A stretch of DNA of 64,000 nucleotides from Bacteroidota bacterium (GTDB lineage: Bacteria; Bacteroidota; Bacteroidia; Flavobacteriales_F; PHOS-HE28): positions 2,457-66,456 of the forward strand of contig JAFDZF010000180.1 of assembly GCA_018267055.1 (NCBI GenBank). The letters are read 5' to 3'. Positions 3,125-9,100 of this stretch are shown piece by piece. The number at the start of each line of letters is the position of its first letter. Positions within the stretch are counted from its first letter, which is position 1. The notes below the pieces were generated by a model that worked only from the letters and a program-made list of their open reading frames with translations, was not told the origin of the DNA and searched no databases. A program made the position numbers and the translations under genes.

Positions 3125-6100
3125 CTACTCCTTCACGAGCCGGGTGCGGGCCAATACTCCGCCCTGGTCATCTAGGGCCAGCACGACATAGGTGCCCGTG
3201 GCCAGCCCGCTGATGTCATAGCGCAGCATGAGCGTCCCTTCCTCGACCACCTTGCCGGACAGGTCGTAGAAGCGCAACCGCCGCGCGTGGGTATCGGACC
3301 ATTGCACCAGCACGTGGTCGTGCGCGGGATTGGGGAAGATGGACAAACCTTGTCCGGACACCGGCTCCGCCATGCCGGTCCACAGCTCGCACAGGTCACC
3401 GATCCCATTGCCATTGGCATCGGCCTGGTCGGGGTTCATCAGCCAGACGCAGTTGTCGCAGGCATCGCCCACGCCGTCGCCATCGAAATCGGCCTGGCCG
3501 GGGTTGTAGGCCGTGTTGCAGTTGTCCTCGCAGCTGAGGAGATCATCGCCGTCCACGTCGGCGTTCGGCTCCACGCCGGTGGTGCCGCCCGCACAGGTGC
3601 CGCAGTCGTCCGGGGCGGCCGTCCCGCCGGGCACGCCGGCGCAATCCAGCAGGATGCCGGTGCAGAGGCAGTTCAGGCCCCAGACGTCCATCACGGTCTG
3701 GTCGTTCCCATCGTCGCAGGTCGTCCCGGGCAGCGCAATGCCGTTCGGGGTACCCATGCAGTCCAGGACCGGCGTGCTGCCTACACAGCCGCAATCGCTC
3801 GTCCACAGGTCGCCCGCCTCGTTGCAGGGCGTGCCTACCAGCGCATCACCGCCGGGAACGCCTTCGCAATCGATGAGCTGGCCGGCGCATGCACAATCGC
3901 TGGTCCAGGTGTCGTTGCCCGTGCCCGCGTTGCCATCGTTGCAGGGCGTGCCGACCAGCGCACCGCCGCCGGGGATCCCCTGGCAGTCGATCACGAGACC
4001 GACACATTCGCAGCCGGCGGTCCAGGTATCGTTGCCGGTGTTCGCATTGTTGTCGTTGCACGGCGTGCCGGGGAGCGCGGCACCGTTCGGGGTGCCCAGG
4101 CAATCCAGCGGCATCGGCGTCCCCACGCACTGGCAGTTCGCGTTCACCACGTCCTCGGTGGTGTTGGGATCGCCATCGTTGCATCCCGCACCGGGCTCCG
4201 CCTGGCCACAGCCGCAGCTGCCGGGCTCCAGCTTGTGCGGGTCGTTGGGGCAGCCGTCCGCCTGGTCGCAGGTGCCGTCACCATCCGCGTCCGGCAATGG
4301 CGTATGGACGCAGGTGGCCCCGTTGTACAGGTCCGTGGTGCATTCGTTCTGGTCGTTGCAGTCCACCGTGCTGCCCACGCACTGGCAGTTCGCGTTCAGG
4401 ATGTCGTTCACCGTGGCGGGGTTCCCGTCGTTGCACGGCGAACCGATCTGGCCCTGGGCGTTCGGGCAGTCATCGTTGCAGTCGGCGGTGCTGTCCCCGT
4501 CGCTGTCTACGTCCGGCGTGCCGCAGCCGCATTGGCCGGGGGCGATCTTGTTCGGATCGTTCGGGCAGCCGTCCTGCGCATTGCAGGTGCCATCGCCGTC
4601 CGTGTCCTGCACCGTGCCTGCGCATTGGCAGTTCGCGTTCAGCACGTCATTGATCGTGCACGCATTGCCGTCGTTGCACGGCGAACCGATCTGGCCCGCC
4701 ACATTGGGGCAGTTGTCCTGCGCATTGCAGATCCCGTCTCCATCCGTGTCCGGACTGATCGTCCCCACGCACTGGCAGTTCGCGTTCAACATATCATTGA
4801 TCGTGCACGCATTGCCGTCGTTGCACGGCGAACCGATCTGGCCCGCCACATTGGGGCAGTTGTCCTGCGCATTGCAGATCCCGTCGCCATCCGTGTCCGG
4901 ACTGATCGTCCCCACGCACTGGCAGTTCGCGTTCAACACATCATTGATCGTGCAGGCATTGCCGTCGTTGCACGGCAACCCGATCTGGCCCGCCACATTG
5001 GGGCCGCTGTCCTGCGCATCGCAGATCCCGTCGCCGTCCGTGTCCGGGGAGGGCGTCCCCACGCACTGACAGTTCGCGTTCAACACATCATTGATCGTGC
5101 ACGCGTTCCCATCGTTGCAGGGCGACCCGATCTGACCCGCCACGTTCGGGCAACTGTCCTGGGCATCACAGACGCCATCGCCATCCGTGTCCGGGCTGAC
5201 CGTCCCCACACACTGGCAGTTCGCGTTCAGCACATCGTTGATCGTGCACGCGTTCCCATCGTTGCAGGGCGACCCGATCTGACCCGCCACGTTCGGGCAG
5301 TTGTCCTGCGCATTGCAGATCCCATCACCGTCCGTATCCGGCGAAGGCGTCCCCACGCACTGGCAGTTCGCGTTCAGCACATCGTTGATCGTGCAGGCAT
5401 TGCCGTCGTTGCAGGAGGAACCGATCTGACCCGCCACGTTCGGGCAGTTGTCCTGCGCATTGCAGATCCCATCGCCATCCGTGTCCGGGGAAGGCGTCCC
5501 CACGCACTGGCAGTTCGCGTTCAGCACGTCATTGATCGTGCACGCGTTCCCATCGTTGCAGGGCGATCCGATCTGGCCCGCCACATTGGGGCAGTTGTCC
5601 TGCGCGTTGCAGATCCCGTCACCGTCCGTGTCGGGGGAGGGAGTACCCACGCACTGGCAGTTCGCGTTCAGCACGTCGTTGATCGTGCACGCGTTCCCGT
5701 CGTTACATGACGAACCGATCTGGCCTGCCACATTGGGGCAGTTGTCCTGCGCGTTGCACACCCCGTCGCCGTCCGTGTCGGGGGAGGGCGTACCCACGCA
5801 CTGGCCGTTCGCGCTCAGCACGTCGTTGATCGTGCAGGCGTTCCCATCGTTGCAGGAGGAGCCGATCTGGCCCGCCACGTTCGGGCAATTGTCCTGTGCA
5901 TTGCAGATCCCGTCTCCGTCCGTGTCCGGCGAAGGCGTCCCTGCACACTGACAGTTCGCGTTCAGCACATCGTTGATCGTGCAGGGATCACCATCATTGC
6001 AGGAAGTACCCGGTTCGGGATTGCCGCAGCCACACGTGCCCGGAGCGATCTTGCCCGGGTCGTTCGGGCAGCCATCCACGAGGTCGCACGTACCGTCGGC

Positions 6101-9100
6101 ATCGGTATCCGGCAGCGGAGCATGCACGCACATGGCGCCATCGAAGCTGTCCGCCGTGCAGGGATCACCGTCGTTGCAGTCCACCGTACTGCCTATGCAC
6201 TGGCAGTTCGCGTTCAGCACATCGTTGATCGTCATCGCGTCCCCGTCGTCGCACGCCGAGCCGATCTGGCCCGGCACGTTGGGGCAGTTGTCCACCGCAT
6301 CGCAGATCCCGTCTCCGTCCGTGTCCGGCGAAGGTGTTCCCACACACTGGCAGTTCACGTTCAGCACATCATTGATCGTGCAGGCATTGCCGTCGTTGCA
6401 GGAGGAACCGATCTGACCCGCCACGTTCGGGCAGTTGTCCTGTGCATTGCAGACCCCATCACCGTCCGTGTCCGGCGAAGGCGTGCCCACGCACTGGCAG
6501 TTCGCGTTCAGTACGTCATTGATCGTGCACGCGTTCCCGTCGTTGCAGGAGGAACCGATCTGGCCTGCCACGTTCGGGCAACTGTCCTGCGCGTTGCAGA
6601 CCCCGTCACCGTCCGTATCCGGACTGATCGTCCCCACGCACTGGCAGCTCGCATTCAGCACGTCGTTGATCGTGCAGGGGTTCCCGTCATTGCACGACGA
6701 CCCGATCTGGCCCGCCACGTTCGGGCAACTGTCCTGCGCATCACAGACCCCATCGCCGTCCGTGTCCGCAACGGGCGTGCCCACACACTGGCAGCTCGCG
6801 TTCAGCACGTCGTTGATCGTGCAGGCATTGCCGTCGTTGCACGACGACCCGATCTGGCCCGCCACGTTCGGGCAGCTGTCCTGCGCATCGCAGACCCCAT
6901 CGCCATCCGTGTCCGGGCTCACCGTCCCTACGCACTGGCAGCTCGCGTTCAGCACGTCATTGATCGTACACGCATTGCCATCGTTGCACGACGAGCCGAT
7001 CTGACCCGCCACGTTCGGACAGCTGTCCTGGGCATCACAGATCCCATCGCCGTCCGTGTCCGGGCTCACCGTCCCCACGCACTGGCAGCTGGCGTTCAGC
7101 ACGTCATTGATCGTGCACGCATTGCCGTCGTTGCAGGAAGAACCGATCTGGCCCGCCACGTTCGGGCAGTTGTCCTGCGCATTGCAGATCCCGTCACCGT
7201 CCGTATCCGGACCGGGCGTGCCCACGCATTGGCAGTTCGCGTTCAGCACGTCGTTGATCGTGCAGGCATTGCCGTCGTTGCACGGCGACCCGATCTGGCC
7301 CGCCACGTTCGGGCAGTTGTCCTGCGCATTGCAGATCCCATCACCGTCCGTGTCCGGACCGGGCGTGCCCACGCATTGGCAGCTCGCGTTCAGCACGTCA
7401 TTGATCGTGCATGGGTTCCCATCGTTGCACGACGACCCGATCTGGCCCGCCACGTTCGGACAGTTGTCCTGGGCATCGCACACGCCGTCGCCATCGCTGT
7501 CCGGACCGGGCGTACCCACGCATTGGCAGCTCGCGTTCAGCACGTCGTTGATCGTGCAGGCGTTCCCATCGTTGCACGGCGATCCGACCTGCCCCGCCAC
7601 GTTCGGGCAGTTGTCCTGCGCATTGCACACGCCGTCGCCGTCCGTGTCCGGGGAAAGCGTCCCCACGCACTGGCAGCTGGCGTTGTAGATATCGTTCGTG
7701 GTGCAGGCATTGCCATCGTTGCAGGCGCTGCCGACCACTGCGCTCCCACCGACCACGCCCAGGCAGTCGGGCGTGGAAGAGCCGCTGGCCGTGGCGCGTG
7801 CGCCGAGCGAGAGGTTCTCGTAGCTGCCGCTCGCGGTGGTCTCCATCTTCATGGCGCGCACCATGTACTGCTTGCCAGCCACGAAAGGGACCGCGGGGTT
7901 GTTGTAGGACGCCCCGTTGACCAGTTGCGGCGAGATGCGGACGACGTCCCCGGAGGTGCCGTCGACCTCGTACACGTAATAGCCCTGGACGGTGCTCGGC
8001 GAAGCGTTCCAGCTGAAGCTCGCCGTCCCCGCGTTGTTCGTCACCTGCAGGCCCGTCGGCGGGGCCACCATCACCATGCGCAAGGTGGGATCGCCCATGA
8101 GGCCGAGGTGCACCCGGCCGTAAGTGGAACCCTGCCAGCCGCTGCTCTGGGGCGTGTACACCGAGCCGTTGTTCATGCTCTGCAGCGCGCTGTACCCGAT
8201 GTTGTCGCCGAGGCCCATGTTGTGGAACCACCAGTTCGGGATGGCCGCCCACACGCTGGTGAGGCCGTTCCCGCTGGCCAGCGGGGCGCGGAGGAAATTG
8301 TTCTTGTTGTCCCAATCGCCGAAGTAGCTGCCGAAGCTCATGTTGAACACGCCGCCCATGCTCACGGTGGAGGCATAGTCCTGCGTGGTGGCGATGTTGT
8401 TGGCCCCGTTGAAGGTGAGCACCCCATCGGTGGTGGCCTGCAGCCCGCCCCCGCTGCTGTAGCTCCAGAGGTAGCTCTGGCCGTTGACGAACGTGCTGAA
8501 CGCCGGACCGTAGGGATAGCAGTCGGTGATGTTGGCGCTGCCCACCAGGCCCGCGATGCTCCGGTACGCGCAGCCCGCCAGCGGATTGCCCACCCACTGC
8601 AGGTTGTCGAAGATGATCCCACGCGCCTGCGGCGTGAAGCCCTTGACCTTGAAGTTGTGCGCCTTGGCGAGGTAGTTGCGGACGAGCTGCACCTCGCTCT
8701 GCCCGAAGGCCGGCATGTCGTAGAGGTCCACCCGGCCCACCTGCAGCTCCAGGGCGGAGGGGTAATCGGTCTGGTCGAACTTGCCGTCACCGGGCACGTT
8801 GCGGTTCTCCGCCCGCTGGCTGCCGCTGTTGTTGACGCTGTTGTCGGTCCAGGTGCCGTTCATCTCCCCGTAGTAGCCATCGCAGGGCCATGCCCCCAGG
8901 TGCTCGTTGTGGCCGTCGGGGTTGAGGTTGCCGGAGTACGGCACGGGGATGTGGCCGAGGAGGTAGACCGCCTTCACGCGGGTGGGATCGGCGTTGTAGT
9001 CCGCCTGGATGATCGCCCGCACGCTCGACACGGAAGCGCTGCGCGATACCGTATGCCGGAGCACGTTCCAGCCATCGGCGCGCAGGTCGTTCTCCAGGTC

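Follow-up and report, generated by a model that had tools for sequence, protein, structure and literature searches.

What is an array of nearly identical coding repeats for, and how old can it be when its units still look so alike as protein? These questions are raised by a stretch of 64,000 nucleotides from an uncultured, high-GC Bacteroidota bacterium (Flavobacteriales_F, PHOS-HE28 in the GTDB lineage; GenBank assembly GCA_018267055.1, contig JAFDZF010000180.1, positions 2,457 to 66,456 of the forward strand), which we call the window and in which all coordinates are counted from the first nucleotide. A preliminary description, made from the letters of the sequence, had noted the repeats near one end of the window and taken them for a 3.6-kb stalk kept uniform by recent concerted evolution or gene conversion. 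A stalk fits the order of parts that we find in the protein, namely a putative signal peptide, a globular head, the repeats, and a sorting domain of the type IX secretion system (T9SS), and we put the probability at about 0.7 that the array is a Ca2+- and disulfide-stabilised spacer that would hold the head off the cell surface. The proposed youth of the array is another matter: the array is old, under strong purifying selection, with some past homogenisation, and has not been recently converted.

All of the repeats lie within one unbroken minus-strand open reading frame (ORF), which encodes a protein of 2136 amino acids (aa) (Table 1). Tandem Repeats Finder detects two arrays with a 147-bp period, both head-to-tail and far above chance, one at 4563-5983 (9.7 copies, 88% matches, 0 indels, score 1900) and one at 6197-7723 (10.4 copies, 86% matches, score 1912), as well as separate 117-bp repeats. 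With the repeat register set by a D.D.D[GS] search of the ORF translation, there are 19 canonical units of 49 aa, ten in a first run (run A) and nine in a second (run B), with a divergent stretch of 84 aa between the runs and a mean column identity of 92% in the protein consensus of the 19 units. Together with about seven divergent modules, this gives a total of about 26. The preliminary description had counted about 25 near-identical tandem repeats of 144 bp, or 48 aa; that the repeats are tandem and coding holds, while the unit is 147 bp long and only 19 of the copies, in two runs, are canonical. Its span of 4130-7790 agrees with the region of modules that bear a thrombospondin type-3 (TSP3) loop, at 4109-7768, its unit motif is the consensus found here, and its variant units are all present (SANGQ at aa 1241-1245, MLNAN at aa 1582-1586, and longer units at the ends).

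Between head and tail, the stalk amounts to about 30 small modules, with 170 Cys in 1471 residues, and it has about 23 TSP3 loops in its composite-unit region plus classical TSP3 repeats near the C-terminus. It also contains a higher-order repeat, a three-module segment that ends both run A (T1, aa 1071-1203) and run B (T2, aa 1675-1810) and that consists of a variant unit without the middle Cys, a CTDC-like module, and a 61-aa unit with a CPNDPxKxxPGxCGCG insert. T1 and T2 share 67% of their amino acids and 72% of their DNA, and are mutually more diverged than the canonical units. The coding strand of the array is the minus strand, which is a correction to the annotation, along with the unit size, the copy number, and the Cys count. 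A plus-strand coding reading was rejected because all domain and homology evidence lies on the minus strand, and the long plus-strand ORFs (3287-5710, 3513-5069, and 6122-9550) are by-products of the high GC content (65-70%) and the codon structure. Such opposite-strand ORFs across the array, which have no domain or homology support, may mislead gene callers.

The first part of the unit, residues 1-19, is a genuine TSP3 calcium loop. Pfam TSP_3 (PF02412) matches the protein in 19 stretches with 224 bits (cut-off 25, E 9.3e-68) and Pfam TSP3_bac (PF18884) with 34.8 bits (cut-off 25), and a profile of the 19 units, searched against PDB sequences, finds the five TSP3 repeats of OmpA (5wtl, E 3.6e-17) with unit residues 1-19 only, and COMP weakly (E 0.42, 17 residues). 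The earlier assignment of the DxDxDGxxDxxD part to the TSP3 motif is therefore borne out. D1, D3, G4, D5, G6, and D12 are invariant in 19/19 units, position 9 is either N or D, and the ligand motif suggests that these loops bind Ca2+. Across 35 diverse three-unit homologous fragments, D1, D3, D5, and D12 are again invariant, together with C25, C31, C41, and C43.

For the second part of the unit, the same profile found no relative of residues 20-49 among PDB sequences, and no NCBIfam model matched this Cys half, in which D27, T32, and D35 are invariant acidic or polar residues. Pfam Dicty_CTDC (PF00526) scores below its cut-off of 27 bits both for two canonical units (14.9 bits, E 0.024) and for a CTDC-like module of the neighbouring paralogue (22.9 bits), which makes the likeness a resemblance only. 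An AlphaFold2 (AF2) model of three units, built with the 35 homologous fragments and used for secondary structure only, shows a beta-hairpin at residues 32-37 and 43-47 in every unit (predicted local distance difference test, pLDDT, 65.6; predicted template-modelling score, pTM, 0.32), and Foldseek returned no PDB fold match for it, the best being ADAM disintegrin domains at E 3.4. The Cys half thus modelled is probably an uncurated four-Cys beta-hairpin module that has no solved or curated relative.

Six Cys are found per unit, at positions 8, 14, 25, 31, 41, and 43, rather than the four Cys and two disulfides that had been proposed, and one of them follows a rule that reaches from one unit to the next. 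We classified 1832 Cys modules in 328 proteins: Cys31 is kept in 707 of the 712 modules that precede a TSP3 loop with Cys8, compared with 135 of the 1120 other modules. In the window protein alone the same contrast is 19/19 before a TSP3 loop with Cys8 vs 0/6 elsewhere. The pattern is seen across very different proteins, and in sampled exceptions the Cys is shifted by a few residues or relocated into the linker. Judged from this co-occurrence, Cys31 of one unit most likely pairs with Cys8 of the following unit, inside the next calcium loop, and therefore one of three disulfides per unit would staple neighbours to each other.

The head (family defined on aa 25-590) has more than 3884 homologues, almost all in metagenome-assembled genomes (MAGs) of uncultured Flavobacteriales, from activated sludge and lakes according to isolate names and record titles; the closest is 70% identical. 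Its AF2 model has a pLDDT of 86.5 and a pTM of 0.90. The best Foldseek matches in the PDB are to the gingipain RgpB (1cvr, E 5e-13; 4ief, E 6e-12; probability 1.0; template-modelling score 0.45/0.57; 12% identity), and FN3-like domains flank the gingipain-like domain. Of 33 family members, 14 are recognised by Pfam Peptidase_C25 (PF01364; best E 2.5e-6); at E<=1 the head of the window protein is not, and its Pfam fn3 matches are weak. When 33 head sequences are aligned, no Cys stands in any column that is invariant or conserved to >=90%, and the head is therefore no canonical C25 peptidase with a Cys-His dyad. The alignment does keep His171, His185, and Ser379 (counting from aa 25 of the protein) with little or no variation, and Ser379 follows a beta-strand in FGSYFGDWD, where the RgpB motif would lead one to expect the clan CD nucleophile. 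The head may be either a Ser-substituted hydrolase or a pseudo-peptidase. The family is also found, at 34-50% identity, in MAGs labelled Lujinxingiaceae, Bradymonadaceae, Sandaracinaceae, Planctomycetales, and Verrucomicrobiota (L042, L052, L055; P0090, P0109), which reflects either horizontal spread or binning contamination.

At its other end the protein carries a T9SS type A sorting domain, matched by PF18962 (28.9 bits vs cut-off 27, aa 2066-2135 of 2136) and by TIGR04183 (25.2 bits vs cut-off 23), and its N-terminus, read by eye from the translation, is signal-peptide-like, with a basic, a hydrophobic, and an A-x-A-like part. Further T9SS cargo-like genes are present in the window, one with a type B C-terminal domain (CTD; 22-3114) and one a type A paralogue (9755-15073). 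We propose that Sec would export the protein to the periplasm, where it would be oxidised and would fold, and that the type A sorting domain would route it through the T9SS, with the C-terminus remaining fixed to the outer membrane. The chain of modules, ~1470 residues long, loaded with Ca2+ and stapled by disulfides, would then place the gingipain-like head at a distance of tens of nanometres from the cell surface; if the predicted Cys31-Cys8 bonds form, the chain would be stapled covalently as well as stiffened by Ca2+.

Several points weigh against this spacer. The three-unit model is weak and has no PDB fold match, so the rod-like geometry and the disulfide map are best read as predictions. 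The Cys co-occurrence counts share repeat ancestry and are not independent, so their odds ratio overstates the evidence for the Cys31/Cys8 pair. Two canonical units have each lost one Cys to Gly by a single TGC>GGC change, at aa 1244 (unit position 41, 5804-5806, minus strand) and at aa 1511 (unit position 14, 5003-5005, minus strand); each change leaves the partner Cys unpaired, which strictly required disulfides would tolerate poorly, and the changes are either tolerated mutations or sequencing errors. Since the head lacks a conserved Cys, its activity, and hence what the stalk would present, is conjectural. Finally, the stalk itself could be the functional, binding part.

This last alternative holds that the array is the working part of the protein, as a multivalent Ca2+-dependent surface for adhesion or cohesion, or as a Ca2+ store or buffer, and we regard it as unlikely. 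Roles of this kind have been put forward for surface proteins rich in TSP3 repeats, among them MtsC, a cell-cohesion protein of Myxococcus. The large number of TSP3 loops, in the composite region and again near the C-terminus, would suit such a role, as would the invariant D27, T32, and D35 of the Cys half and a ratio of non-synonymous to synonymous substitution (dN/dS) of 0.08 among units, which is stricter than a mere spacer might need. There is also a partial match to the NCBIfam MtsC model (43.7 bits, aa 1992-2050); however, it is far under the 350-bit cut-off and covers the classical TSP3 repeats only. In a literature search, we found no paper linking TSP3 repeats with type IX secretion, nor MtsC with thrombospondin.

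The relatives of the protein bear on this point as well. Where the head is shared, the stalk varies between 0 and 13 composite units and between 0 and 36 Cys modules: one protein has 36 TSP3-free Cys modules (L001) and another 18 (L003), one has 7 + 3 composite units punctuated as in the window (L006), two others have 10 (P0122) and 9 (L050) composite units, and many have no stalk modules at all. A single MAG can hold long and stalk-less paralogues, for example L005 and L040. That relatives with the same head swap the composite units for TSP3-free Cys modules, or are nearly stalk-less, counts against a working array, and suggests that a specific binding surface matters less than length or structure. 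Unrelated heads are also found joined to this unit, which tells against a working array as well; such N-terminal parts include that of a 2399-aa protein opening like a metallocarboxypeptidase and that of a 3438-aa multi-domain protein with a type B-like C-terminus. Searched against 1.84 billion representative proteins, the unit profile matches 3497 of them at E<=1e-3, and 254 protein clusters are left when the limit is tightened to E<=1e-30; many of the matches are full-length (positions 1-47). Among the best 150 matches and the head homologues, the maximum is 17 full composite units and the longest unbroken run 13, so the window's 10 + 9 stand at the top of the range and are not different in kind.

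The preliminary description was right that copy number differs, as the ranges among relatives indicate. A closer pair is provided by two T9SS proteins from different assemblies, which belong to a protein family unrelated to the window's and share its module: P0124 (1121 aa) has 6 units and P0271 (1313 aa) has 10, while their flanks are 96-98% identical. The number of units can thus change from one close variant, or one independent assembly, to another.

The age of the array is told by the contrast between its protein and its DNA. The units are about 92% identical as protein and about 85% as DNA, the pairwise DNA identity among the 19 units being 84.5% on average (range 73-95%), so that the substitutions are not the merely sporadic ones that had been described. 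Nor is the third-position pattern conserved: 40/49 third codon positions vary, compared with 18 first and 13 second positions, and the codon differences among units are 2155 synonymous vs 993 non-synonymous. By the Nei-Gojobori method, the proportion of synonymous differences (pS) is 0.45, the synonymous (dS) and non-synonymous (dN) distances are 0.74 and 0.06, and dN/dS is ~0.08. Codons for the same amino acid mismatch at a rate of 0.295, vs 0.28-0.33 for random draws from the codon usage of the genome; synonymous divergence is near the ceiling set by codon bias. These values contradict the recent concerted evolution or gene conversion that had been supposed. Column-specific codon preferences persist (Thr, for example, is ACG in 51/53 codons) and betray the common ancestry of the units. 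Past local duplication or exchange has left traces in the array, in that adjacent units differ at 17.1 nucleotides vs 21.5 for all pairs (permutation p<1e-4) and polymorphic sites match in tracts whose length exceeds that found after shuffling the sites (p 0.002-0.04). A four-gamete test (63% of site pairs incompatible) was set aside as stand-alone evidence of recombination because homoplasy is expected at such divergence, and the tract-length permutation was used instead.

An array of the Periscope type, in which frequent intragenic recombination or conversion keeps the units alike and stalk length changes readily, is how the preliminary description saw the locus, and we consider it improbable. 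Much about the array would look the same in such a case: the units are near-identical as protein, adjacent units are more alike and share tracts longer than in shuffles, neighbours share an exact repeat of 92 bp, 449 21-mers recur, canonical units of different runs (~85% DNA identity) are more alike than T1 and T2 (72%), each species has its own unit flavour, and P0124 and P0271 differ by four units between nearly identical flanks. The synonymous sites speak against it. Ongoing conversion would homogenise these sites too, yet DNA identity is only 84.5%, the mismatch of codons is near random, most third positions vary at a dS of 0.74, and dS within runs (0.742) equals that between runs (0.740). 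Variation in length is seen between species and in another protein family; the closest relative is 70% identical in the head, and exact-protein look-ups for this gene and for the neighbouring polyketide synthase gene gave no record. With units ~85% identical in DNA and near synonymous saturation, recombination-driven length switching of the Periscope type is not supported.

We instead propose that the array would have been born by tandem duplication after the split from its known relatives, but long ago, and that the units would then have been kept nearly constant by purifying selection while synonymous sites drifted toward the codon-bias limit. The arrays of L006, L005, and L002 share the window's pattern of protein over DNA conservation, the units of L006 being 94% identical as protein and 86% as DNA with a pS of 0.52. 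Head identity between lineages is only 65-70%, and expansion after the lineages split, followed by purifying selection, fits this. We considered whether species-specific flavour combined with synonymous saturation is a paradox, and rejected this; the relatives are far more diverged (65-70% aa in the head) than the units are mutually, and expansion after the species split together with strong purifying selection is enough to explain both.

The units are also distinct enough to be assembled. All 19 can be told apart, the longest exact repeat, between neighbouring units, is the one of 92 bp already mentioned, 16 77-mers recur, and the frame stays intact to the C-terminal sorting domain over 6.4 kb without indels or frameshifts, which together make collapse in assembly unlikely here. 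The preliminary description had expected collapse; its general caution about such arrays is fair, though the present array looks sound. That the number or order of units is an assembly artefact of collapse, expansion, or chimeric joining is thus very improbable, even though short-read assemblies are indeed disrupted by genes of this kind (in 14/56 related loci the contig stops within the gene, and many database homologues are flagged partial), the difference between P0124 and P0271 might itself be collapse, and the two Cys-to-Gly changes might be sequencing errors, because the units are distinguishable with few recurring 77-mers, the unbroken ORF ends in a proper sorting domain, and comparable arrays occur in MAGs with ONT- or tig-type contig names (L006, 13 units; L005, 9 units).

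A more ambitious account joins these pieces into one, and as a whole we think it doubtful. The stalk would be built from a distinct uncurated module, a TSP3 loop plus a four-Cys hairpin knot, with Cys31 stapled to Cys8 in the calcium loop of the following unit, to form a Ca2+-gated rod whose length would be set per species and paralogue by module number; selection would keep the units near-identical as protein, and synonymous scrambling of their DNA would incidentally guard against recombinational loss, the opposite of Periscope; and the rod would carry a gingipain-fold head with its catalytic Cys replaced, possibly by Ser379. If this were true, the head would either be a Ser/His hydrolase of a new kind, built on the clan CD scaffold, or serve for binding without catalysis.

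Table 1. Parts of the stalk gene, from the N-terminus to the C-terminus of the protein (window coordinates; aa, amino acids).
Feature	Position	Strand	Basis or remark
Whole gene, 2136-aa secreted surface protein	3125..9535	-	Stop codon included; one ORF; Pfam TSP_3, Por_Secre_tail, weak fn3
Predicted signal peptide, aa 1-24 (MPVPMFRRSLLLVLALSLTALVGA)	9464..9535	-	Translation inspected by eye
Globular head, aa 36-582	7790..9430	-	AF2 model, Foldseek, Pfam
Head subdomain, FN3-like	9179-9430	-	AF2/Foldseek
Head subdomain, gingipain/C25-like alpha/beta	8093-9160	-	AF2/Foldseek
Head subdomain, FN3/Ig-like	7790-8056	-	AF2/Foldseek
First stalk module, aa 590-629, 40-aa DCxG Cys module, middle Cys kept	7649..7768	-	
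Run A, 10 tandem 147-bp composite units, aa 630-1119	6179..7648	-	
Tenth unit of run A, variant without middle Cys	6179-6325	-	
Punctuation segment, aa 1120-1203	5927..6178	-	With the preceding variant unit = T1
Punctuation part, Dicty_CTDC-like 3-Cys module	6110-6178	-	
Punctuation part, 61-aa long composite unit with CGCG insert	5927-6109	-	
T1, whole	5927-6325	-	
Run B, 9 tandem composite units, aa 1204-1643, last one 48 aa	4607..5926	-	
Variant TSP3-bearing modules, aa 1644-1809	4109..4606	-	Last three = T2
Variant module, TSP3+CGCG	4514-4606	-	
Variant module, variant composite (in T2)	4367-4513	-	
Variant module, CTDC-like (in T2)	4292-4363	-	
Variant module, long composite (in T2)	4109-4291	-	
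T2, whole	4109-4513	-	
Four to five 36-40-aa DCxG...CxDGNxxTxxDxWxxxCxC Cys modules without TSP3 loop, aa 1810-1992	3560..4108	-	117-bp period at 3819-4070
Classical TSP3 repeats, aa 1993-2052	3380..3559	-	TSP3 models of NCBIfam (MtsC / Omp28-type) match aa 1991-2050
T9SS type A C-terminal sorting domain, aa 2066-2136	3128..3340	-	PF18962, TIGR04183

The window has a GC content of 64-72%, with a slight dip in the array. The adjacent paralogue (9755-15073, minus strand) shares the head of the stalk protein at 49% identity. It contains a single TSP3 composite unit and a type A CTD, and its stalk is made of many 39-aa modules of the form DCxG...CxDGNxxTxxDxWxxxCxC (117-bp repeats at 10452-10828 and 11487-11757), along with two copies of a ~190-aa domain (...DLVYDS.P..WRGNQ..GL.F.G..VPQG...AY.QFTA...); its true start is likely the Met at 14899 and not the TTG at 15073. 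Immediately downstream of the stalk gene and convergent with it, the gene at 22-3114 (plus strand) encodes a protein of 1030 aa, which combines PKD domains with a sorting domain of T9SS type B (CHU_C / TIGR04131), and the stop positions of the two genes, 3114 and 3125, are 11 bp apart. Beside the surface-protein genes, at 15270-25729 (plus strand), are hybrid polyketide synthase/nonribosomal peptide synthetase genes, the first (2162 aa) with a fatty-acyl-AMP-ligase-like AMP-binding domain, a carrier protein, KS, AT, and a class III aminotransferase, and the second (1345 aa) with the order C-A-T-TE, a layout reminiscent of lipopeptide loading modules.

For the reading of such loci, the array means that a repeat that is near-perfect as protein need not be a young or unstable repeat as DNA; it should assemble reliably, and hypervariability cannot be assumed for it. 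The module is abundant and uncurated, with at least 254 protein clusters, mostly from uncultured Flavobacteriales of activated sludge and lakes, and it comes with a testable rule for disulfides between modules. In addition, there are more than 3800 T9SS surface proteins with a gingipain-like head that lacks the catalytic Cys. While the practical value of these results is modest, many MAGs could be annotated better if Pfam or NCBIfam had models of the Cys half and of the head.

How, then, does the protein compare with systems that are already known? The gingipain RgpB is a classic T9SS type A cargo, and like it, the window protein combines this central head fold with a type A sorting domain at its end. 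The C25 fold is recognised by Foldseek, whereas the Cys-His dyad of C25 is not conserved; identity is 12%, the head has no conserved Cys, and gingipains have no TSP3/Cys stalk. In the TSP3 wire of eukaryotes, disulfides tie successive calcium loops together. The wire of thrombospondin and COMP (PDB 3fby) is similar to our stalk in its DxDxDGxxDxxD loops followed by NCP and in its interleaved Cys, and differs in that every loop of our stalk is succeeded by a beta-hairpin Cys module of 30 aa, in the near-identity of our repeats, and in their setting in a T9SS cargo protein of a bacterium. Those of the OmpA family (5wtl) are the best solved TSP3 relative of unit residues 1-19, with DTDGDGIxDxxDxCPxVxG; they are ~27 aa long and periplasmic and have Pro at position 8, whereas our unit has Cys at this position and an extra four-Cys module. 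By its title, the study of Dai et al. 2017 (cited in PMC12045341) reports that calcium binding by OmpA TSP3 repeats depends on disulfides.

Periscope proteins are, by definition, a class whose long repeats are highly identical and whose repeat DNA is closely similar (Whelan et al. 2021, PMC8201768). As protein, the array is of this kind, with its 19 units and 92% mean column identity; as DNA, with 84.5% identity, a dS of 0.74, and a longest exact repeat of 92 bp, it does not have the high similarity of the class. The window protein has in common with Periscope proteins and fibrillar adhesins a signal peptide (putative in our protein), a distal head, a long stalk of similar domains, a C-terminal anchor, and a variable number of modules, whereas its units are 49-aa Ca-loop/Cys-knot modules in place of Ig-like globular domains. 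Por_Secre_tail has been listed among the anchors of fibrillar adhesin-type proteins in Bacteroidetes (Monzon et al. 2021, PMC8286594), and our protein joins this domain to ~30 tandem modules; in its head we found no adhesive Pfam domain, only weak fn3 matches and the C25-like fold, so that the recognised adhesive domain of a fibrillar adhesin is missing.

By analogy, the stalk would in function most closely resemble the presentation stalk of Myxococcus xanthus TraA, whose Cys-rich beta-hairpin repeats have been described as leading from the head to a C-terminal sorting tag (PMC12045341). The two share a head, an extended Cys-rich beta-hairpin region thought to be stiffened by disulfides, and a sorting tag at the C-terminus. 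They differ in phylum, in sorting (a T9SS CTD here, as opposed to MYXO-CTERM and the type II secretion system), in head fold, and in repeat family; TraA has no interleaved TSP3 loops, and no Myxococcus Cys-rich-repeat model of NCBIfam matched at E<=0.01. In this company, the window protein is a repeat-stalk surface protein of a known kind, built from a widespread and uncurated composite module.

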